Below, piece by piece: positions 1 through 9,038 of a stretch of DNA of 64,000 bases. Source of the stretch: a virus. Both the position numbers and the translations under genes were made by a program. The notes under the pieces were generated by a model, which searched no databases, was not told the DNA's origin, and saw nothing but the letters and a program-made list of their open reading frames with translations. The stretch's first letter is position 1. Every line of letters begins with the position of its first letter. The stretch is from the IMG/VR virus record IMGVR_UViG_3300043251_000023, positions 1 through 64,000 of that record, one strand, 5' to 3'.

Positions 1-151
1 GGAGATTGTCGAGGCCATGCGGGCGGACTGGCCGGAGGGTGCCTTGTGGCCGCTTACGCGCGCGGTAATCATCGAACGCTTTGCCCGCTGAGCCGAAAAT
101 ATCCCCACCTGTTCTTGCCCGGACTCGCCGACTCTGTTACGCCCCGCCGCC

Positions 152-367
152 ATGAGCGAGCCTGAGCAAATCGAAGACGAAGAGATCGAACTCGTCCCGG
201 TGCCGATGCGCCCGGAGACGCGCGCTGCGCTGCGCCGGTTTGCCGAACGGATCGGTGAGCCGCCCGGCATTGCGGCCGGGATGCTATTCGAAGACCTGCT
301 CGAGGATGAAGATTTTTGGGAAGCGTTCGAAGACTCGACCGAGGTCGAGCCGCAAACCCTTAACTGA
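152..367 (+). CDS. small hypothetical protein, possible ribbon-helix-helix DNA-binding protein
   Basis: 71-aa ORF with a VPVPMRPETRAALRRFAERIG strand-helix-helix-like pattern. Confidence 0.4.
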   Translation: MSEPEQIEDEEIELVPVPMRPETRAALRRFAERIGEPPGIAAGMLFEDLLEDEDFWEAFEDSTEVEPQTLN

Positions 368-378
368 GGAGAACGGCG

Positions 379-771
379 ATGGCGAAAAAAGGCGATCCGA
401 AGGAAGCAGTCCGCAAGGTTACATCGGCGCGCAAGCTGAAGGAATTGCTGGCGTCGGCCAGGTCGGTGCGCAACGATATTTCCGAACTGTCCGGCGGGTT
501 CGGCTCGGAGATCAAGCTCGCGGTGGAAAAGAACCACCTCCACCGCAAGGCGTTCCGCGCCGCCATTGCCGAAGACCGGATGGAGCCGGAAAAGCTCGCG
601 GAATATTACGAACAACTCGACTATTACCGCGACGTCTTGGGCCTTCTCGAGCGGGCACAGAACGCGCCGAAACTGCCGATGGGCGAAGCCACGGAAGGCG
701 AAGAGGAAGGCGAGACCGGCAACGGCACGGTTCATTCGTTCCCGGCGCCGAAAACCGTCGCGGCGGAATGA
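379..771 (+). CDS. GapR/DUF2312-like nucleoid-associated protein (distant)
   Basis: GAGGAG RBS; KAFRAAIAEDRMEPEKLAEYYEQLDYYRDVLGL resembles the GapR C-terminal helices as recalled. Confidence 0.5.
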   Translation: MAKKGDPKEAVRKVTSARKLKELLASARSVRNDISELSGGFGSEIKLAVEKNHLHRKAFRAAIAEDRMEPEKLAEYYEQLDYYRDVLGLLERAQNAPKLPMGEATEGEEEGETGNGTVHSFPAPKTVAAE

Positions 772-1238
772 AGGTCCTGGGCATCGATCCAGGGTTAAGC
801 GGCGGTCTCGCGGTCGTCGAAAGCGGCGACCGCCCCCGGATAATCGGGATTATCGATGTCCCGACGACCGGGGAAAAGGCAAAGCGGCGGGTCGACGTCG
901 CCAAGGTTCTCGCCTTCCTTTGGGAACATCGGCCCGACCACGCCATCATCGAGCGCGCCCAAGCCATGCCGGAACAGGGCGCCAGCTCGGGCTTCATCTA
1001 CGGCCGAGCGGTCGGGGCGCTCGAAGCGATCGTCGAAGGGATGCAGGTCCCGCTAACGGTCATCGAGTCGACGGCATGGAAAAAGGCCCACGCCCTCATC
1101 AAGCGGGGCAAGGAAGACAGCCGGCAGCGGGCGATCAAACTCTTCCCCGCCGCGGCCGGTTTTGAGCGAAAGCTCGATCACAACAGGGCTGAAGCGGCGC
1201 TGATCGCGTGGTACGGGGTGATGCTGCTGAAAGGTTGA
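768..1238 (+). CDS. RuvC-like Holliday junction resolvase
   Basis: MKVLGIDPGLSGG start, IIE motif, DHNRAEAALIA C-terminus; ATG overlaps the upstream stop (ATGA). Confidence 0.85.
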   Translation: MKVLGIDPGLSGGLAVVESGDRPRIIGIIDVPTTGEKAKRRVDVAKVLAFLWEHRPDHAIIERAQAMPEQGASSGFIYGRAVGALEAIVEGMQVPLTVIESTAWKKAHALIKRGKEDSRQRAIKLFPAAAGFERKLDHNRAEAALIAWYGVMLLKG

Positions 1239-1240
1239 CC

Positions 1241-1801
1241 ATGTCGAGACACCACAAGACGCCGCCGCCGTACCGGCCGGAACCGCCGAAGCCGAACAAC
1301 TCGGCGGTCGTCATCGGCATCCTGGCTTTGCTTCTGCTTTTCGGGATCATTTTTTGGCTTTACGAGCCGCCGGCGCCGAAGCCGGTCCCGGCATTGCCGC
1401 CGATCAGCGGGCCGGTCGAACCGCCGCCCGTTGCGGAACCGGCCCCGGTTGTTGCGCCGGAACCCCCTCCCGTTGCGCCGGAGCCGCCCGCTGTTGCGCC
1501 CGAACCGGTTTCACCTCCGCCCCAGGAACCGGTTATTCCCGAAATCACACCGGTTCCCCCCGAAACCGCCGCGCCGCCGCCGCCGGACTTGCCCAATAGC
1601 GGCGTAAGCGCCGCGCCGCCGCCGGTAGCCATCCCCACAACGCCCTTGGCGAGCCCGCCCGTTGCCCATCCGGCCGCCCCGCCCCGACACAGGGTTCATC
1701 CCCGCCCGACGCACCGCCACGCGCCCCGACGCGGACGTGGGGGGTGCCAAGCGTGCCGGGAGCCGATGCCGGCGGACGAGTATTGCTGCGGGGTCTATTG
1801 A
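1241..1801 (+). CDS. proline-rich single-pass membrane protein with Cys-rich tail
   Basis: one hydrophobic helix (AVVIGILALLLLFGIIFWLY), VAPEP repeats, CQAC...YCC end. Confidence 0.55.
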   Translation: MSRHHKTPPPYRPEPPKPNNSAVVIGILALLLLFGIIFWLYEPPAPKPVPALPPISGPVEPPPVAEPAPVVAPEPPPVAPEPPAVAPEPVSPPPQEPVIPEITPVPPETAAPPPPDLPNSGVSAAPPPVAIPTTPLASPPVAHPAAPPRHRVHPRPTHRHAPRRGRGGCQACREPMPADEYCCGVY

Positions 1802-2415
1802 TGCTGCTCGACGCGCTGCCTAAACGGCACTTTGGGGCGATCCTCGCGGATCCTCCCTGGCATTTTCGCTCCCGAACGGCGCTGCAATCATCAAACTGGA
1901 CCAGCCGCCGGGATGCCGAAAAACATTTCGCCACCATGGGGCGGGAAGATATAGCGGCGCTGCCGGTAGGCGACTACGCCGCGCCGGACGCGCATCTTTT
2001 CCTTTGGGTGACTGGTCCCTGCCTTCCCTACGCTTTCGATGTGATGAAGGCGTGGGGCTTCCGCTATTCGGCGGTTGCCTTCACTTGGGTAAAGCTGAAG
2101 CGATCACACGACGCGCTTCAACTTCGCGTCCTGCCGACCATCGAGGGCGATCTTCATGTTGGGCTCGGATTGACCACGCGGAAGAACGCCGAATTTTGCC
2201 TCCTTGGACGGCGCGGCAATGCCAAGCGCCTGTCCAAAAAGGTGCGCGAAATTATCCTTTCGCCAGTACGCGAACACTCGCGCAAGCCTGAAGAGGCCGC
2301 AACCCGCATCGAGGAATACTGCGCCGGCCCTTATCTTGAATTGTTCGCCCGTTCCGAGCGTCCCGGATGGATTTGCCGCGGCGACGAGGTCGGCAAGTTT
2401 TCCGCCGCCGCCTAG
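1801..2415 (+). CDS. MT-A70 family adenine methyltransferase
   Basis: ILADPPW, HLFLWVT, HSRKP and LELFAR motifs. Confidence 0.9.
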   Translation: MLLDALPKRHFGAILADPPWHFRSRTALQSSNWTSRRDAEKHFATMGREDIAALPVGDYAAPDAHLFLWVTGPCLPYAFDVMKAWGFRYSAVAFTWVKLKRSHDALQLRVLPTIEGDLHVGLGLTTRKNAEFCLLGRRGNAKRLSKKVREIILSPVREHSRKPEEAATRIEEYCAGPYLELFARSERPGWICRGDEVGKFSAAA

Positions 2416-2593
2416 TTTCCATCCCGGAATCGAATCGGCTATAGTCCCTGAGTCGGCAGGCCAGCCGGCTTCTACGGGCGGGATTTGAGCTTGGGTCTCC
2501 ACCCCGGCTCGGCCCGCCCGCCCAACGCCCAGTGGAGGGGCAAATGACCGTGACAATTCACGCCCGATTTTCGCCCGCGCCGACGAGGCGCTG

Positions 2594-3064
2594 ATGAGCG
2601 ATCATTTTCGATCACATTGGGAACGCCGACTCGGCCGCTGCGAAAGCCCGATCGAATCGATGCTATTGGAGCAATTCTGCGCTGCGGCGGTTGAATGGGG
2701 TTACGACGTCGGCCGCGCAGTCAAGGTCCAATCCGAAACCATAGTCGTTAAGCCGCAAGCGCATGTAGATCGCTGGCGCGTCGACTTCCTGATCACCTTC
2801 GACTTTTTCGGAAGTCTGATCGAGATCATCGTCGAGTGCGACGGCCATCAATGGCACGAACGGACGAAATCGCAAGCCACGAAAGACCGCTCGCGCGACC
2901 GCGCGCTTCAATCTCTCGGCTATGAGGTTCTGCGGTTCACCGGCTCAGAGATAAACGCGGCGCCAGCTCGATGCGCCTTCGAAGTTTTGGACCGCATCAT
3001 GGAGTTTCAAACCGCGTGCTTTGTCCACGCCGTCGAAACGGCAGAACGGAAAGACGCGCGATGA
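2594..3064 (+). CDS. DUF559/Vsr-like endonuclease
   Basis: ESPIE...RVDF...VECDGHQWH...DRSRDRALQSLGYEVLRFTGSEI. Confidence 0.85.
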   Translation: MSDHFRSHWERRLGRCESPIESMLLEQFCAAAVEWGYDVGRAVKVQSETIVVKPQAHVDRWRVDFLITFDFFGSLIEIIVECDGHQWHERTKSQATKDRSRDRALQSLGYEVLRFTGSEINAAPARCAFEVLDRIMEFQTACFVHAVETAERKDAR

Positions 3065-3753
3065 TCGATGACGATCGCCTTCCGTGGTTCCATTGCTTCC
3101 CGTCGAAGTGGCTTGATGCTCTCGGCGGTCTGCCGGCAGACCAGAAGCTCGTCTATTCGATCATGCTTTTACGCATCTACGACGCCCGCGGCGCCTGCAT
3201 GGACTCGCTCGACGCGATCGCGACCCGCTGTGGGATCAACAAGAGGCGCACGACCGACGCTTTAGACGCTCTATTCAGAGCCGGAAAATTGGTTCGAATC
3301 GAGGGCGGAATCCATAACCCAAGGGCCATCGAACATATCGAGCGCGGCAATGCCCTCCGGGCGGAGCGCCAAAGGGCCGGCGCGGGAGGCGGCAAGAGGG
3401 CGGCGGAAATTCGCAAGCAAAATCAAACAGGGCCGCCTAGCAAAGCTATAGCTAGAGGCAAGCAGAAAGAGAAAGAGGTAGAAGACTCCTTATTCCCTAA
3501 CGGGAATAAGGCGCCGGTTTTGAAAAACGGAAACACTGAAGAGGCCGATCTATTCCGCCGTGGAAAGGAAATACTCGGCCCAGAAGCGGGCGGTCTTATC
3601 AAAAAGGTTTTGAAAGCCAAAGATGGGAACGTTCCGCAGGCGCGAGCCGCAATCGAAATGGCCGTCGGAAGAAACAATCCGCGCGAATACATCGGCGGCG
3701 TGATCAGAGCCGGTAACAGAACGCACGACGACACTGTGGATGGCCGCCTATGA
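3061..3753 (+). CDS. putative replication initiator (YdaU/DUF1376-like N-terminus)
   Basis: LPWFHCFPSKWL...L...QKLVYSIMLLRIYD N-terminus; located directly before the primase-helicase. Confidence 0.6.
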   Translation: MIDDDRLPWFHCFPSKWLDALGGLPADQKLVYSIMLLRIYDARGACMDSLDAIATRCGINKRRTTDALDALFRAGKLVRIEGGIHNPRAIEHIERGNALRAERQRAGAGGGKRAAEIRKQNQTGPPSKAIARGKQKEKEVEDSLFPNGNKAPVLKNGNTEEADLFRRGKEILGPEAGGLIKKVLKAKDGNVPQARAAIEMAVGRNNPREYIGGVIRAGNRTHDDTVDGRL

Positions 3754-4061
3754 TCACCGCCGGCGAGATTCTGCGTGAGCATCGAATCGTCCTACGAGAT
3801 GAGACGATCGGCCGTCACTACGCGACCTGTCCGCAATGTTCGGCGAAACGGAAGCAGGCACACCGAAAGCTGAAATGCCTCGGCGTGACAATAAACGGCG
3901 ACGGCTTGAACTGGGGATGCAATCACTGTGGCTGGACAGGAGGGGGATTCTATGACCGGAAAAACGTTAGGCGCGCTGGGAGTGGCAGCGTTCGAGCATC
4001 GGGGCATATCTCCGGAAACGGCCGGGCGGTACGGGATATATACCGCGCGCCGGACCGATGA
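3750..4061 (+). CDS. primase zinc-binding domain encoded as a separate ORF
   Basis: CPQCS...KCL.V...WGCNHCGWTG zinc ribbon typical of T7 gp4/Twinkle N-termini. Confidence 0.75.
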   Translation: MITAGEILREHRIVLRDETIGRHYATCPQCSAKRKQAHRKLKCLGVTINGDGLNWGCNHCGWTGGGFYDRKNVRRAGSGSVRASGHISGNGRAVRDIYRAPDR

Positions 4062-5469
4062 TGGTGGTCTTGAACCGCACGAAAAAGGCAATGTCGTCGT
4101 CTTTCCGTTCTCCGACCGAGGCGCGGTCGTCAACGAAAAATATCGCGCGCCGTCGAAGAAGTTTTGGCAGCGCGCCGGCGGCAAGCGAACGTTCTGGAAC
4201 GCCGACGCTTTAGACGATCCGGCACTCGAGGACGGTCGAATGCCGCTGGTGATCACCGAGGGAGAGATCGACGCCCTGTCGGCGATCGAGTGTGGTTTTC
4301 CGCTCACCGTATCGGTTCCGGACGGGGCGCCGGGAGTGCCGGAAGGCGAAGAACCTGAGAACCTCGCGCCGCTCGACCCGAAGGCAGAGGATTCCGGAAA
4401 GTTCGAGTTTCTGTGGAACAACCGCGAGCGACTGGCGCGCGTCAAAAGGTTCGTCCTTGCCGTCGATAACGACGGACCAGGCAGACGATTGGCGGCCGAA
4501 CTCATGCGCCGGCTTTCCGCAGCCCGCTGCTCGTTTGTGATCTATCCGGACGGCTGCAAGGATCTCAACGACGTGCTGACAAAGGGCGGCGCCGAAGAGG
4601 TCGCGCGCGTCATCAATGCGGCTAAACCGTATCCGGTTCGCGGTCTTTATCGACTTTCGGAATTTCCGCAAAACGGCGCGCTGCCGACTTTTAGAACCGG
4701 ATGGTCGACGCTCAACAACAATCTTCGCTTATTCGCTGGCGAGTTCATGGTCGTCACCGGCATTCCTGGACACGGCAAATCGACATGGGTTTTGAACTTG
4801 CTTGCTGACGCCGCCGATCTTCATGGATGGCGTTCGGCGATCTTTTCACCGGAGATGCCGACTGTTCCCCAGTTGCGAGACAAGTTGCGGCGCATCACGC
4901 TTCGAGGTCCGATCGAGGGGTCGAGCCACGATATGATCGCCGAGGCCGACGAATGGATTGAGCGAAATTTCGTCTTCATTGATGTCGACCCGACCGGGAA
5001 GGACGATGAAGAGTATGATCTGGATTGGGTGCTTGATCGCGCGACCGACGCTGTTCTGCGCGATGGCGTCCGTGTGCTGGTGATCGACCCTTGGAACGAG
5101 ATCGAACACGCCAAGCGGCGAGACGAGACGATGACGGATTACATCGGTCGCGCCATCCGCGCGATGAAGCGATTTGCGCGTCTATATGAAGTTGCCGTGA
5201 TCGTGGTCGCTCATCCAACCAAAGACGTCGCCAAGGAGGGAAAAAGCCGGCCGCCGACGCTTTATGACATCGAAGGTTCGGCACACTGGTTCAACAAGTG
5301 TGATCATGGAATCGTCGTCGACTGGCCGGATTCAAACATCGCCGAAAGCGTGATCCGCGTCGCAAAGGTTCGATTCGAGGAAAGCGGCGAACGCGGTCAG
5401 GTGCGGTTAAAGTTTGACAGGTATTCGGGCCGGTATGATCTGTTGATCCGCGAGGAGACGCCGCCATGA
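3952..5469 (+). CDS. TOPRIM primase + SF4 (DnaB/T7 gp4/Twinkle-like) helicase
   Basis: ITEGEIDALS and DNDGPG TOPRIM motifs, KDLND, Walker A TGIPGHGKS, VIDPWNE, VAHP; GGAGG RBS before ATG 3952. Confidence 0.92.
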   Translation: MTGKTLGALGVAAFEHRGISPETAGRYGIYTARRTDDGGLEPHEKGNVVVFPFSDRGAVVNEKYRAPSKKFWQRAGGKRTFWNADALDDPALEDGRMPLVITEGEIDALSAIECGFPLTVSVPDGAPGVPEGEEPENLAPLDPKAEDSGKFEFLWNNRERLARVKRFVLAVDNDGPGRRLAAELMRRLSAARCSFVIYPDGCKDLNDVLTKGGAEEVARVINAAKPYPVRGLYRLSEFPQNGALPTFRTGWSTLNNNLRLFAGEFMVVTGIPGHGKSTWVLNLLADAADLHGWRSAIFSPEMPTVPQLRDKLRRITLRGPIEGSSHDMIAEADEWIERNFVFIDVDPTGKDDEEYDLDWVLDRATDAVLRDGVRVLVIDPWNEIEHAKRRDETMTDYIGRAIRAMKRFARLYEVAVIVVAHPTKDVAKEGKSRPPTLYDIEGSAHWFNKCDHGIVVDWPDSNIAESVIRVAKVRFEESGERGQVRLKFDRYSGRYDLLIREETPP

Positions 5470-5616
5470 GCGCGTGGGATGAGAACAAGAAAACATGGGT
5501 GCCGGAGCGGCCGATTATCGAGCGTTCCGACGACATCCGCGACGTGATGGAAGGGCCGATCGTCGGCGCGCTGGTATCGGTATTTCGCCAACTCGAGGAA
5601 ATGGGAGCGAAGCGCC

Positions 5617-5835
5617 ATGGTCGCGATCAATGAATCCGTGATCTACAAAAGCATGGCGGGCGAGCCTTGGGATGCGACAGTCGTCCGCGTCGGTCCTCCG
5701 GGATATGTCGACGTCACGCTTTCCGGTCCGTTCCTTCGTGAGCCGTTCGAACTTCACGCCGTTCGGTGGTACGACGATCCGGACGAGCCGAAGTCCGGAG
5801 CGCGGCCATGCGGGAAACAATATTCAGGAAAATAG
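5617..5835 (+). CDS. hypothetical protein
   Basis: 72-aa ORF with GGAG RBS, in operon order. Confidence 0.45.
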   Translation: MVAINESVIYKSMAGEPWDATVVRVGPPGYVDVTLSGPFLREPFELHAVRWYDDPDEPKSGARPCGKQYSGK

Positions 5836-5847
5836 TTTTTCTGGGTC

Positions 5848-5877
5848 TTGACGGCGTTCGCTTAAAACGCTTACATA
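5848..5877 (+). promoter_or_regulatory. putative sigma70 promoter with an inverted repeat in the spacer
   Basis: TTGACG (5848-5853), then AT-rich TTACATAAAA from 5871; GCGTT-N7-AACGC dyad at 5854-5870. Confidence 0.5.
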
Positions 5878-5883
5878 AAATTT

Positions 5884-6096
5884 ATGACCGCAGCAGACGT
5901 GCGGAGAATGTTGCAACGGGCTTGTGAAAGAGCCGGGAGCCAACGCGCATGGGCGCGTGAGCATTCGGTTTCCGTTGTTTACGTCAATGACGTTTTAAGC
6001 GGAAACCGCGAGCCTGGCCCTGCGATTTTACAAGCGTTTGGGCTGGAAGCGGAGCGGCGCACCACATATAGGAAAAAAGGGCAACCAAATGGCTGA
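5884..6096 (+). CDS. Cro/Xre-like helix-turn-helix protein
   Basis: GSQRAWAREHSVSVVYVNDVLSGNREPGPAILQAFGL HTH pattern. Confidence 0.8.
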   Translation: MTAADVRRMLQRACERAGSQRAWAREHSVSVVYVNDVLSGNREPGPAILQAFGLEAERRTTYRKKGQPNG

Positions 6097-6718
6097 GCGC
6101 ACCATCGAGATTCCTGAAATCAAACTAGACCGGATCACCGTCAAGGTCGTTGGCACGTCGCCGCTGCTCACGAATCGGTTCGGCGAAAACGCCATTACGT
6201 CCATCGAAAACAAACAACAGAAAAAGGCCAAGGGCGTGAAGGAGGCGCGCGACCCCCACGCGGAGTTTGTCGAAAAACTGCATGTCATAAAAGCAGGTAA
6301 AAGCGATCTTGATGGCACGTTCGGCTATCCGTCCATCGGCATCAAAAAGTGTCTTGTCGTTGCCGGTGGGCGGTTCGCCGACGAAAAGATGACGCATCTG
6401 CGCGGCGCGATCAACATTCTCGGCAGCCTCATCGAAATCAAATCGCCACCCCCGACCATGCGGACGGACACCGTGCGCCTGCAGGGCGGCGTGACCAGCA
6501 TCGCCTATCGGCCGTCGTTCTGGCCGTGGGAAATGGAAATTCCGGTTGTGTATAACGCAGGCATCATCGGCCCCGCGCAAATCCTCAACCTTTTCCAGAT
6601 TGCCGGTTTTGCGGTAGGATTCGGCGCATGGCGCCCCGAACTTAACGGCGTGTTCGGCCAGTTCGTTTTGAAGGATTCCGCCGAAGTCCAGACGAAAGGA
6701 CGGGCCAAGGCGGGATAA
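6089..6718 (+). CDS. stand-alone RAMP/Cas7-like RNA-binding protein (Vipr-like guide-binding effector)
   Basis: N-terminal strand ITVKVVGTSPLL, YPSIGIKKCL, YRPSF.PWEMEIPV and a C-terminal glycine-rich loop AGFAVGFGAWRPELNGVFGQF; no other cas genes; directly followed by the pentamer array. Confidence 0.8.
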   Translation: MAERTIEIPEIKLDRITVKVVGTSPLLTNRFGENAITSIENKQQKKAKGVKEARDPHAEFVEKLHVIKAGKSDLDGTFGYPSIGIKKCLVVAGGRFADEKMTHLRGAINILGSLIEIKSPPPTMRTDTVRLQGGVTSIAYRPSFWPWEMEIPVVYNAGIIGPAQILNLFQIAGFAVGFGAWRPELNGVFGQFVLKDSAEVQTKGRAKAG

Positions 6719-7251
6719 AACACAAGAGCAGACTCGATTTGCTATGCGTTGAACAGACCTTAAGACAGTCAACGAGCATCTGTAGCGAAAAGAAAACAGG
6801 CGCATAGATCGGAGCGGACTCGACAACACTACACAACAAGAGAAAAGTTTAATCCATTTGCCAATAGAGGAGATTAGCAAACTAAGGACGCGACGAGAAT
6901 CGAGAACACGCGAAATGCTTTGTCCATTTGCTATAAGAAAAGCTGAGAGCAAATTTGCGTAGCCTAGCCTTGACACGCAAAGCATCGACGTGAGAACCGC
7001 TGAAATGAAAAGTTTAATTCCTTTGCCATCTGAATGGAGCCGACACGAGGCGAGGCGCGGAGAAAACCCGTGACGACAAATGAAAAGTTTAAACAATTTG
7101 GGCATTTGATAAGAAAAGCTTAGCTGTGACGACAATGGACAACCGAACAACCGAGAAGAAATGTTTTTGTTTGGCCCTTTATCAAAAGAGCCGATTTGCG
7201 TTGCAGAGACGCGCGTAGAAATGTCGTCACGACAATCGAGATGAAATGTCT
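6715..7251 (+). repeat. array of seven tracts of 5-nt units (NG[A/C] or AC[A/C] triplet + variable NN), mostly separated by conserved NGAAA-WGYTT + ~10-nt ...TTTG linkers
   Basis: by my count 71 of 91 core pentamers have G at position 2, 15 more start AC, and none has G at position 3; phase is unbroken over 6781-7090; linkers AATCCATTTG 6851, TGTCCATTTG 6921, AATTCCTTTG 7016, AAACAATTTG 7091, degenerate at 7167. Confidence 0.92.
6715..7251 (+). ncRNA. putative multi-guide precursor RNA (gapped-code guides) for the adjacent RAMP protein
   Basis: the variable dinucleotides of six tracts decode to conserved transposase or mobile-element protein motifs; transcription and processing are not shown. 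Confidence 0.75.
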
Positions 7252-8307
7252 ATATCGATCAAAGAGTATTTTGCGCTGGCTGGAACGTCGTTCACCAACG
7301 ACGATGCGCGGGTTATCGGCCCGGTTCTCCAAGAGATTGCCACCGATGGTAGCGTGACCGCAGAGGCGGTCGTGCAGGCCGCGCATTCCGCAAATAGCCC
7401 ACTGCGCAGCTATTTCGAGTGGGACGACAAAAAGGCTGCTCACCAATATCGAGTCGGCCAAGCCAACTACATGATAAACGCTGTCCGCGTGCGCTTTGTC
7501 AGCGCCGGCAAGGAATATGCGACGCGCGCTTATCGGGTTGTCACCAAGCAGTACGAAGGCGACGCGGCCGGATGGGATGAAGACGAGCGATCCGTCGAAA
7601 TCGTGCGGTCGCCGAACGATGAAATCTTGGCCGCGCTGCGGGAGGTTGATGCGTGGCGCGTCAAATATGCTCACCTTTCCACCTTCCAGAATGCCAAATC
7701 GTTTTTGGTGCCGATCTTCAACCAGATTGCCGAGTTCCGCGCGGATTTGGCTGGCAAAGAGGCTATGCCCATAGACGGGGCGCTCGGCGAGCTTACCCAA
7801 TGGGTTCAAAAATATGGCGACGCCGATGCCGTGTCCGCCTCTGCTCTCCTTGGCGAGCACATTCACTACATGGTGGAGGCGATCAACGAGTCCTGGGAAA
7901 ACTTTGGACGCTTCAAGCATGATCCGGCATTGCGTCGGTCTCTGGTGGAGGAAGAAAACGAGGAATTGCGCGAGCGCGTCCGGATTTTGGAGGAGATGTT
8001 AAACGGGAAGGAAAGTCTGCCGCCGGAATTGAGGTTGACCGCAAGCGAGGAGCGCGTCGTGTCAGCCCTGCTGTCGCGAGACGTTATGACCAAAGAGGCC
8101 ATTTCGATGGCGCTCTATTCCGACCGCCCCGATGTTGCGCCAGAATTAAAAATTGTCGACGTATTCGTGTGCAAAATCAGAGCGAAGATTGAATCGCACG
8201 GGTTGAAAATCGAAACGCATTGGGGACGCGGCTATTCGATGCCGGCGGAGAGTAAGCAAGAGCTGCGCGGCATGATCGCCGCGCGCAAAGAGGCCGCAGC
8301 GGCATGA
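7246..8307 (+). CDS. RAMP-associated partner domain fused to an OmpR/PhoB (CtrA-like) winged-helix DNA-binding domain
   Basis: N-terminal VTAEAVVQAA...SPLRSYFEWDDKKAAHQYR motif; C-terminal LTASE...LYSDRPDVAPELKIVDVFVCKIRAKI...IETHWGRGY. Confidence 0.75.
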   Translation: MSISIKEYFALAGTSFTNDDARVIGPVLQEIATDGSVTAEAVVQAAHSANSPLRSYFEWDDKKAAHQYRVGQANYMINAVRVRFVSAGKEYATRAYRVVTKQYEGDAAGWDEDERSVEIVRSPNDEILAALREVDAWRVKYAHLSTFQNAKSFLVPIFNQIAEFRADLAGKEAMPIDGALGELTQWVQKYGDADAVSASALLGEHIHYMVEAINESWENFGRFKHDPALRRSLVEEENEELRERVRILEEMLNGKESLPPELRLTASEERVVSALLSRDVMTKEAISMALYSDRPDVAPELKIVDVFVCKIRAKIESHGLKIETHWGRGYSMPAESKQELRGMIAARKEAAAA

Positions 8308-9038
8308 AACCTTTGCGTCGATTTGCAGATCATGGCGACGCCGGCGCGCCTTACTCACTGGCCCCGTCGCATATCGCCGCGCGGCTTGGCACAAGCCTTT
8401 ATCGCGAAGGGCGCCTAGGCTTCCCCAAGGGCAAAACGCTCCTAACCAGCGGCCATAACAATCGCAAGATCGGCGCCGTCATCCAAAAGGGTAGATGGAA
8501 GGGCTACCCGGTCTTTACCTTGACCCTGGAGGAACGCGCCACCTGTCCGCGCTCATGCGCGCATTGGCTCGATTGCTACGGTAACAAGATGAACTGGCCT
8601 ACTCGATGGATGAATGACGCGGACCTGATACCGACAATCGGTAGGAACCTATCGGATTTATCGAGAAACGTCCCGAATTTCGTTATCCGGCTTCATGTCC
8701 TTGGCGACTTTTATTCAGTCGCCTACGTCGAGCAATGGGCGCGATGGCTCGATGAATTTTCCGGCTTGCACGTCTACGGCTACACGGCTTGGCAGCCGGA
8801 TACTGCGATCGGTCGCACCGTCGCCGCACTCGCGGAAGCCCGCTGGGATCGTTTTGCGGTTCGCACGTCGAACGGCGTCGTGGCCGAACGCACGACTGCC
8901 ACGATCTACGAGGCCAACGCCAGCGGCCAAATAAATGGCGGCACGGTCTGTCCGGTACAGACAGGAAAAACCGAATGTTGCGCGACGTGTGCTTTATGCT
9001 GGCAGACGCAGAAGCGCATCATCTTCCTGGCGCACTAG
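8304..9038 (+). CDS. GP88-like Cys-rich phage protein
   Basis: TCPRSCAHWLDCY, IRLHVLGDFYS, C-terminal CPVQ...CCATCALCW. Confidence 0.6.
   Translation: MKPLRRFADHGDAGAPYSLAPSHIAARLGTSLYREGRLGFPKGKTLLTSGHNNRKIGAVIQKGRWKGYPVFTLTLEERATCPRSCAHWLDCYGNKMNWPTRWMNDADLIPTIGRNLSDLSRNVPNFVIRLHVLGDFYSVAYVEQWARWLDEFSGLHVYGYTAWQPDTAIGRTVAALAEARWDRFAVRTSNGVVAERTTATIYEANASGQINGGTVCPVQTGKTECCATCALCWQTQKRIIFLAH

Follow-up and report, generated by a model that had tools for sequence, protein, structure and literature searches.

A phage-borne, non-canonical VIPR-type array with a guide that matches IS1595-family transposase genes

Systems of the VIPR (Viral Interference Programmable Repeat) kind consist of a phage-encoded Vipr protein of the RAMP type and a vrRNA, which is made up of 9-16 GGY/NN pentamers followed by a 3' tail, and the vipr gene is accompanied by vap genes, neighbouring accessory genes for which a DNA-binding or nuclease domain is predicted (10.64898/2026.04.26.720920). 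According to the main text of that study, the NN dinucleotides recognise double-stranded DNA on either strand, with one target base skipped, usually the wobble position of a codon, and transcription is repressed as a result. The natural targets named there are satellites, prophage regulators and other VIPRs. Repeat variants (NNNGG, YNNNG and NNNNG) are part of the same description, in which a "related consensus" is accepted as well. In the present work we analysed a stretch of 64,000 nucleotides (nt) from an uncultured soil phage, namely positions 1 to 64,000 of IMG/VR record IMGVR_UViG_3300043251_000023 (hereafter the window), and found a locus of this kind with a deviating repeat. Its fourth repeat tract, at positions 6932-7001 and called guide D here, is in our judgement one guide (a vrRNA tract) of a phage VIPR system, with silencing of IS1595-type transposases as the likely outcome; on the sequence evidence presented below we put the probability of this reading at roughly 80%.

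VIPR was described only in 2026, in bioRxiv preprints, and the main texts place its known targets in enterobacterial and Pseudomonas phages. Structural work on SUSP1, as given in the main text of 10.64898/2026.04.26.720927, describes one Vipr protomer per repeat, with the first G of the repeat (G1) held by H17 and D177 and the second (G2) by R138 and W178. The pocket for the third base (Y3) excludes purines, and the target forms a gapped R-loop triplex. Cryo-electron microscopy in the same text indicates that VIPR filaments can also pair with single-stranded RNA, RNA targets yielding mostly incomplete filaments. [quoted passage not shown] Non-canonical fixed trinucleotides (GAC/NN, CAC/NN, WGT/NN and TGH/NN) beside genes for Vipr-like folds are described in the text of 10.64898/2026.10.21.760802.

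The array of the window lies in 525 non-coding bases between an open reading frame (ORF) for a 209-amino-acid RAMP protein, here called vipr, and an ORF for a 353-amino-acid winged-helix protein (Table 1). G residues recur in it with a period of five, the autocorrelation of G reaching 2.10 at lag 5, 1.79 at lag 10 and 1.68 at lag 15, compared with 0.35-0.42 at lags 1, 4 and 6. The best 150-nt period-5 windows of the whole 64 kb are those at 6876-6926, where one phase is 73% G against a mean of 23-27%. In the main register, position 1 of the pentamer falls at 6722+5k. The repeat tracts are 10-14 pentamer units long and are separated by a conserved handle of 20-25 nt (GAAAWG..GTTTAATCCATTTGC). 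The handle copies, which form direct-repeat family D1, are 70, 95 and 75 nt apart, and since all of these spacings are multiples of five, the pentamer register passes through the handles. Of the 47 guide pentamers, 34 begin with G and 11 with C, and their second base is A in 34 and C in 11; the third and fourth bases vary freely, and position 5, which is equivalent to G1, is rich in A. Tandem Repeats Finder reported only a 16-nt unit in the array because the pentamers are too degenerate, and no Rfam family was found in the region 5500-8000 at E-values up to 1.

The pentamers of guide D read TATAA GAAAA GCTGA GAGCA AATTT GCGTA GCCTA GCCTT GACAC GCAAA GCATC GACGT GAGAA CCGCT. A first-pass annotation, made from the sequence alone, had extracted from this region the dinucleotide series TA AA TG GC TT GT CT CT CA AA AT CG GA GC and had read it, in sense, as 14 consecutive codons of an IS1595 transposase. 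The series is found exactly at pentamer positions 3-4, and the sequence of 6931-7015 is as it had been described there, with 7002-7015 being the start of the next handle and lying outside the guide. Each dinucleotide corresponds to the first two positions of a codon in a conserved stretch of 14 codons, YK[C/S/T/A]AFVLLHK[I/L]REA, which is located between the zinc ribbon and the DDE domain in one clade of IS1595 transposases. The proposed sense decoding holds, as the dinucleotides with a 1-nt skip match transposase genes in frame and on the coding strand, with the wobble base skipped. Since this decoding rule is the published 1-nt skip rule of VIPR, the first-pass reading is a correct application of a known rule and not a new rule. 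The GA repeat being non-canonical, the skip rule is extrapolated here to the clade of the window, where it is supported by the target statistics only.

Targets of guide D were searched for in 401 genomes of Hyphomicrobiales (NCBI taxonomy), the order of a Lichenihabitans metagenome-assembled genome that carries a vipr homologue. A first search with the last nine dinucleotides of the guide as a 1-skip pattern, for which the backwards pattern served as control, gave one exact match and six matches with one mismatch, compared with one match for the control. The exact match lies in frame in an ORF (locus L038) that reads ...SYKACFVLLHKIREAM... and encodes the Pfam domains DDE_Tnp_IS1595 (PF12762, E 3e-35) and Zn_ribbon_IS1595 (PF12760, E 5e-12), both above cut-off, in agreement with the IS1595 family, whose transposases combine a zinc ribbon at the N-terminus with an ISXO2-like DDE domain. 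The six one-mismatch matches were discarded, as they fell into unrelated ORFs (MscL-like and others) in about the number expected by chance. The full 28-base gapped pattern with up to three mismatches was found in 10 of 75 genomes of one bacterial family, in four of them with two mismatches and in six with three, and the backwards control was found in none; by our own arithmetic about 0.001 matches would be expected by chance. All of these matches fall at a single motif, YK[S/T/G]AFV[L/P][L/F]HKLRE[A/S], of IS1595-like ORFs.

The match depends on the way in which the guide is read. Guide D scores 24/28 in L038 and 26/28 in four further loci (L043-L046), and these 24-26 matching bases at a skip of one compare with at most 19 at skips of 0, 2 and 3. 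Taking pentamer positions 3-4 as the guide dinucleotide gives 26 matches, compared with at most 20 for the other four dinucleotide registers, and the codon offset is 0 in every IS1595 hit. Position 5 of the pentamer equals the skipped target base in 113 of 429 cases (26%), which is chance level. At the protein level the best of 150 IS1595 representatives (P0269, with YKCAFVLLHKLREA) agrees with the guide in 13 of 14 residue classes and 35 of the 150 reach at least 12, compared with a mean best match of 6.7 and a maximum of 8 for 100 order-shuffled guides. Loci that were fetched by their IS1595 zinc ribbon, and hence independently of the guide, score 22-23/28 in 8 of 30 cases. Furthermore, 15 viral contigs in IMG/VR encode the IS1595 subgroup of guide D. 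The guide scores at least 23/28 in 13 of these 15, which also exceed the 80% NN criterion of the VIPR papers, and 26/28 in the three contigs that encode YKCAFVLLHKLREA (L090, L091 and L101). The decoding of guide D is far beyond chance.

The protein variant that the first-pass annotation had named, YKCAFVLLHK[LI]REA, does exist: YKCAFVLLHKLREA occurs in P0269 and in the viral contigs L090, L091 and L101. The searches did not turn up YKCAFVLLHKIREA, the exact I-form, and the closest I-forms observed were YKACFVLLHKIREA, YKTAFVLLHKIREA and YKVAFVLLHKIREA. Seven IS1595 loci have exactly two mismatches to the gapped string, the largest number which that annotation had allowed, namely L043-L046, L090, L091 and L101. 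It had also supposed that the lineage differs from that of the array's first guide and that the hits should be placed on a tree. In a quick maximum-likelihood tree (IQ-TREE) of 36 ORFs, the loci matched by guide D form one clade of 17 (SH-aLRT support 95), and the targets of guides A and B (see below) are found in the sister clade, which agrees with that supposition. ORFs were included if they had at least 180 amino acids and two CxxC pairs, a filter that dropped 5 of 41 loci, including L078, the best locus for guide B.

In the matching family, IS1595 zinc ribbons were found in 57 of the 75 genomes, a single genome having as many as 16 matches, and several genomes contain many matches of the same score, for example 16 in genome G441. 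Plasmid homologues of P0269 are annotated as "IS1595 family transposase". The Pfam assignment refers to the L038 ORF, and the other target loci were assigned to IS1595 by homology and by the zinc-ribbon search. Out of four loci checked for terminal inverted repeats, only L090 has a candidate pair, of 15 nt, flanking the gene. Five IS1595-bearing phage records were examined, none of which encodes a Vipr of the window's family. Two of them (records G469 and G470, with loci L093 and L097) are complete phages that have direct terminal repeats and sizes of 98 kb and 85 kb, and their IS1595 transposase genes, which may be either insertions of an IS or resident phage genes, match guide D at 23-24/28.

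Table 1. Features of the vipr locus in the window. Guide sequences in square-bracket notation are residue classes decoded from the variable dinucleotides.
Feature	Position	Strand	Remarks
vipr	6089-6718	+	209-amino-acid Cas7/Csm3-like RAMP; no Pfam domain; phrog_4652, unknown function
5-nt-periodic array	6719-7245	+	period-5 G signal; unique in window
Guide A ("guide 1" of the first-pass annotation)	6716-6780	+	13 pentamers; register from 6716, overlaps vipr stop codon
Guide B	6782-6841	+	12 pentamers, main register
Handle 1	6842-6861	+	GAAAA GTTTA ATCCA TTTGC; D1 family, in pentamer register
Guide C	6862-6911	+	10 pentamers, in pentamer register; sense [IM]G[FL][KN][KN]RR[IM][DE]R
Handle 2	6912-6931	+	GAAAT GCTTT GTCCA TTTGC; D1 family
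Guide D ("guide 4" of the first-pass annotation)	6932-7001	+	14 pentamers; Y-K-C-A-F-V-L-L-H-K-I-R-E-A at positions 3-4
Handle 3	7002-7026	+	GAAAT GAAAA GTTTA ATTCC TTTGC; D1 family; weak predicted structure
Guide E	7027-7081	+	11 pentamers; sense S[IM]A[HQ]GGG[KN]RR[KN]
Handle 4 and distal phase-shifted degenerate units	7082-7245	+	include short tracts 7123-7157 and 7183-7217; reach next start codon
vap-like gene	7246-8307	+	353 amino acids; N-terminal phrog_15946; C-terminal OmpR-type winged helix, Pfam Trans_reg_C, E 2e-8

For the protein encoded upstream of the array, an AlphaFold (AF2) model built from 32 homologues has a mean predicted local distance difference test (pLDDT) value of 77, and Foldseek searches of the PDB with this model retrieved Csm3/Cas7 chains, which are backbone subunits in CRISPR complexes of types III and VII (probability 1.00, E-values down to 5e-6, TM-scores of 0.45-0.5). 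The product is a RAMP/Cas7-like Vipr homologue and the predicted filament-forming binder of the guide RNA. Sequence searches returned 156 relatives with E-values of 0.001 or lower, and among the matches listed (120 of 156) there was no Pfam domain and no name beyond "hypothetical protein". The protein is 32% identical (E 1e-32) to gp39 of Gordonia phage UmaThurman, and canonical GGYNN repeats that extend over about 300 nt begin directly after the gp39 gene. A profile comparison with hhalign aligned it over 59 columns with an ORF of the E. coli Felixounavirus LNA6 (95% probability, E 2e-8), which is flanked by three GGTNN tracts. The annotated coding sequence after UmaThurman gp39 (gp40, "hypothetical protein", L087:2640-2963 on NC_031249.1) consists of GGYNN pentamers over about 300 nt and is probably a vrRNA array that was mis-called as a gene. 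A tblastn search also matched 27 Mycobacterium and 5 Gordonia phage records, annotated as "hypothetical protein" throughout the matches listed.

Residues of the window's Vipr were related to those of SUSP1 through the LNA6 alignment and the residue numbers given in the SUSP1 paper. On this basis R141 and W181 align with the G2 contacts R138 and W178, and A180 aligns with the G1 contact D177. The C-terminal G-rich loop that contains Ala180 (GFGAWRP) is conserved in the 32 homologues, and Ala180 is conserved in at least 90%. The exchange of Asp for Ala fits the loss of the first G and, as far as the alignment goes, may be a case of protein-RNA co-variation behind the non-canonical repeat. In addition, 31 related loci were fetched, some contigs being represented twice because they came from two collections. 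In 20 of these 31 the period-5 G signal is strongest in a window that starts no more than about 700 nt downstream of the vipr homologue, and homologues of the vap-like gene follow vipr in 21 of 31, at a distance of 3-971 nt. Vipr homologues of 37% identity are followed by about 35 GGCNN units.

Two further guides of the array point to the same gene family. Guide A (NN series AA CA GC CT TT TA GT AC CC AG GT CG AT) corresponds in sequence to the template strand of another IS1595 subgroup at the motif RMLG[VI]TYK[TS]AWF; it scores 22/26 in L060, L067 and L072, that is in 3 of 30 loci, and at most 17/26 at other skips. Guide B (NN series AG AA AA GG AT TC GC CT CA CT CA AG) has the coding-strand sequence of SKKGISSHQLHR, with 21/24 in the IS1595 locus L078, 18/24 in nine further loci of 30, and at most 16 at other skips. 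The sites of guides A and B adjoin in the same IS1595 proteins on opposite strands and, together with the site of guide D, span the segment from the zinc ribbon to the DDE domain, which we take to be a helix-turn-helix. Altogether, IS1595 genes are matched by three out of seven tracts that were tried. No handle separates guides A and B, which adjoin directly with a 1-nt register shift at about 6781, and one long two-tract vrRNA or two separate RNAs are both conceivable. For guide E, six matches with three mismatches were seen in the 75 genomes; they were in unrelated ORFs and frames, the control gave one hit, and they were rejected as chance.

Arrays of related phages reach the same family. 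In five related loci (L003, L004, L006, L015 and L021), the Vipr proteins of which are 62-98% identical to that of the window, windows of ten dinucleotides from the array match the IS1595 locus set with 20/20 bases at a skip of one, and controls at skips of 0 and 2 reach at most 17-18/20. The arrays of L006 and L015 match the template strand of the motif (E)VDGAYFGG, and that of L003 matches the YAQEASWREDNRR motif. The arrays of L001, L002, L005, L010, L020, L030 and L017 gave no excess over background against the IS1595 locus set. In L010 (3560-4150, Vipr 71% identical) elements with hairpins that resemble the T-arm of tRNAs (CCnGGTTCRAnTCCnGG) lie between the vrRNA-like tracts, which suggests processing by host tRNA enzymes; ARAGORN called no tRNA on this array. 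Arrays interspersed with hammerheads have been reported, and tRNA-like ones are not mentioned in the text of 10.64898/2026.04.26.720920.

If the published VIPR mechanism applies, vipr and the array would share a transcript, from which the vrRNAs would be released by cuts at the handles. Each pentamer would then be bound by one Vipr protomer, the fixed bases being flipped out and the dinucleotides presented. The filament would invade double-stranded DNA, where the dinucleotides would pair with two of every three target bases with the wobble base skipped, and the resulting R-loop triplex would block transcription. Guide D would pair with the template DNA strand. In an infected or lysogenic cell, IS1595-type transposases would be silenced in this way despite synonymous variation and the element would be immobilised, in parallel to the phage VIPR directed against the excision recombinase of a satellite, as it is described in 10.64898/2026.10.15.759431.

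The match between guides and transposase genes might also be explained otherwise. A guide could act on the transposase mRNA in an antisense-type manner instead of on DNA. The pairing of VIPR filaments with single-stranded RNA mentioned in the text of 10.64898/2026.04.26.720927 would permit this, and guide A, with its template-strand sequence, could pair with mRNA. Guides D and B are identical and not complementary to the mRNA, and since guide D has the coding-strand sequence it must pair with template DNA and cannot pair with mRNA, which favours DNA targeting. Published assays, as given in the main texts, moreover show binding of double-stranded DNA and strand-independent repression, with RNA filaments mostly incomplete, and we give action on mRNA scarcely any weight. 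The 5-nt tract might even be a mere protein-binding scaffold comparable to TRAP-binding GAG repeats, with the apparent guide information being numerology. A periodic RNA-binding site was indeed the initial reading of the array, and the guide reading provides no target for guide C, guide E or either of the short distal tracts. Ten hits compared with none for the backwards pattern, shuffled guides that reach at most 8/14 compared with 13/14, and the failure of other skips and registers speak against coincidence, as do hits that are always in frame at one motif of one gene family and the arrays of related phages that reach this same family. A TRAP-like or decoy RNA scaffold was dropped once the NN code had matched targets, and we attach practically no probability to it.

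Granted that the guides recognise IS1595 genes, the purpose may differ. The IS1595 copies could be decoy or parking sites in the host and not genes to be silenced: they are multi-copy in hosts, and decoy targeting of host sequences is described in 10.64898/2026.10.15.759431. The guides, though, belong to the vipr-vap locus of the phage itself and not to a satellite, and the coding motifs that they address in codon register are the most conserved ones. Such a pattern marks gene targeting that is escape-proof and not a decoy, and we regard the decoy explanation as very improbable. With the same machinery and the same match, the real targets could alternatively be rival phages or satellites with a gene for an IS1595-type transposase, and the array would then be an inter-phage weapon. 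The 15 viral contigs with the subgroup of guide D and the high scores in most of them can be read in this sense, and so can the five IS1595-bearing phage records, two of them complete and none with a Vipr of this family, and the satellites, prophage regulators and other VIPRs that the main text of 10.64898/2026.04.26.720920 names as natural targets. Set against this, IS1595 genes are multi-copy in bacterial chromosomes, in the numbers given above, as is typical of insertion sequences, which also enter prophages; viral-contig calls may include host flanks; and guides C and E match none of the five phage records. We consider a weapon against rival phages unlikely, though a good deal less so than the foregoing explanations, and rate silencing of insertion sequences as such higher than silencing of rivals that carry them.

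Several observations weigh against the interpretation of guide D as a VIPR guide that silences IS1595-type transposases. The repeat is mostly GA, and according to the main text on SUSP1 the third pocket excludes purines and perturbation of GGY, GGY to GGA being among the substitutions tested, abolished silencing. The handles lack a stable predicted fold, unlike the published pseudoknot tail. No match to the full exact 28-base pattern was found in the viral contigs, and the best target found scores 26/28, none reaching 28/28. Eleven loci of the tree had been fetched with the guide D pattern itself, and nine of these are in the clade of 17, the other eight members having been fetched by zinc ribbon. 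The 13-dinucleotide pattern of guide A was found in none of the 75 genomes at up to three mismatches. Guide C had no target in the IS1595 loci, in the viral contigs (exact match) or in the five phage records, and the same was found for guide E, with no exact matches in viral contigs and none in the IS1595 loci or the five phage records; the two distal tracts of seven dinucleotides gave no target signal in the IS1595 loci. No sigma-70-like promoter or terminator was found within 5700-7400, nor any RNA run that contains the locus, and transcription, processing sites and vrRNA ends are predictions.

Predicted structure in the array is low. Whole units of array RNA are predicted to be less structured than shuffled sequences (z +1.2 to +1.4), and the handle alone folds with -0.9 kcal/mol. 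A 12-nt imperfect inverted repeat (ATTTGCTATAAG / CTGAGAGCAAAT) at 6926-6954 connects the last bases of handle 2 with the opening pentamers of guide D, and a TTTGC...GCAAA pairing of a similar kind follows handle 1. The inverted repeat may be a coincidence, as the folded units are no more stable than shuffles.

The whole record is a virus genome of 73,543 nt with direct terminal repeats and is rated complete. Positions 1-9000 of the window represent a phage early region with genes for a RuvC-like resolvase, an MT-A70 methylase, a primase/helicase, a small helix-turn-helix protein and a GP88-family protein. The MT-A70 DNA methyltransferase gene (1744-2415) lies upstream of the vipr locus, as does an ORF resembling DUF559/MTES_1575 endonucleases (2594-3064). 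The phage's own genome contains no IS1595 gene and no self-target of guide D, the best self-match being 18/28, and the gapped codon string of the guide is absent from the window at up to three mismatches, as expected of a non-self target. Scans of ORFs, Pfam and phrog profiles revealed no CRISPR repeat-spacer array, no Cas6, Cas5, Cas10 or Cas11 and no adaptation genes in the locus.

The locus adds to a known, very recent system, and its target class is new relative to the main texts searched: the terms "insertion sequence" and "IS1595", as well as "transposase" as a target, are absent from the main texts of 10.64898/2026.04.26.720920, 10.64898/2026.10.15.759431 and 10.64898/2026.10.21.760802, the supplementary tables of which may list them or the clade of the window. 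It would extend VIPR to an uncultured soil phage, with relatives seen in Hyphomicrobiales assemblies, and to a degenerate repeat in which loss of the first G goes with an Asp-to-Ala exchange at the aligned G1-contact residue. Insertion-sequence DDE transposases, addressed at conserved motifs in codon register, are indicated as a new class of targets. A testable idea that follows is that phages police transposons, or rivals bearing transposons, with a guide code that tolerates synonymous variation, and the natural guide-target pairs described here could be used to probe the reach of the 1-nt skip rule outside GGY systems.

More tentatively, and at somewhat less than even odds, non-canonical VIPR arrays may serve a whole clade of soil phages to silence IS1595 transposases across the family by means of RNA guides, and this would be the first virus-borne RNA-guided defence against insertion sequences. 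If this is true, several guides, directed to either strand, address the best-conserved codons of the transposase, namely the segment between zinc ribbon and DDE domain, the DDE motif "DGxYFGG" and the C-terminal "WREDNRR", and with the wobble base skipped one guide would cover a whole transposase clade. Such an array could protect the phage or prophage genome from invasion by insertion sequences or immobilise rivals that bear them.

Compared with VIPR, the locus shares the phage-encoded, small stand-alone RAMP protein and the 5-nt tandem repeats with fixed bases and a variable dinucleotide. Its tracts comprise 10-14 units and have a conserved element after them, the 1-nt skip is at the wobble position, and there are targets on either strand and no self-target. 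An accessory gene with a winged-helix domain is adjacent, and the target is a mobility gene of another mobile element. Unlike in VIPR, where it is GGY, the fixed part has the form a/G/[A or C] and is GA for the most part, with a first G that is not conserved and Ala in place of the G1-binding Asp. The array is placed between vipr and the vap-like gene, and the handle has 20-25 nt, is in register and AU-rich and has no predicted pseudoknot. Unlike in the published cases, the targets are IS1595-family DDE transposase genes. The non-canonical VIPR-like arrays of 10.64898/2026.10.21.760802 are similar in their period of five, their non-GGY trinucleotide and the Vipr-like fold nearby; the text of that study gives no targets for them, and they may or may not include the clade of the window.

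More distant resemblances are found to CRISPR-Cas systems. The backbones of class 1 CRISPR complexes (Csm3/Cmr4/Cas7) have the RAMP fold, one protomer per guide unit and periodic base flipping in common with the present system, and differ from it in a period of six with five pairing bases compared with a period of five with two pairing bases here. Type IV CRISPR-Cas systems use ordinary contiguous spacers and a multi-subunit Csf complex and mediate silencing between plasmids. They resemble the locus in being borne by mobile elements and in the presumed nuclease-free, RNA-guided interference with a competing mobile element. Among these systems VIPR is the closest, and judged by the features that can be examined in silico, the locus agrees with it apart from two departures, the non-canonical repeat and the unstructured handle.

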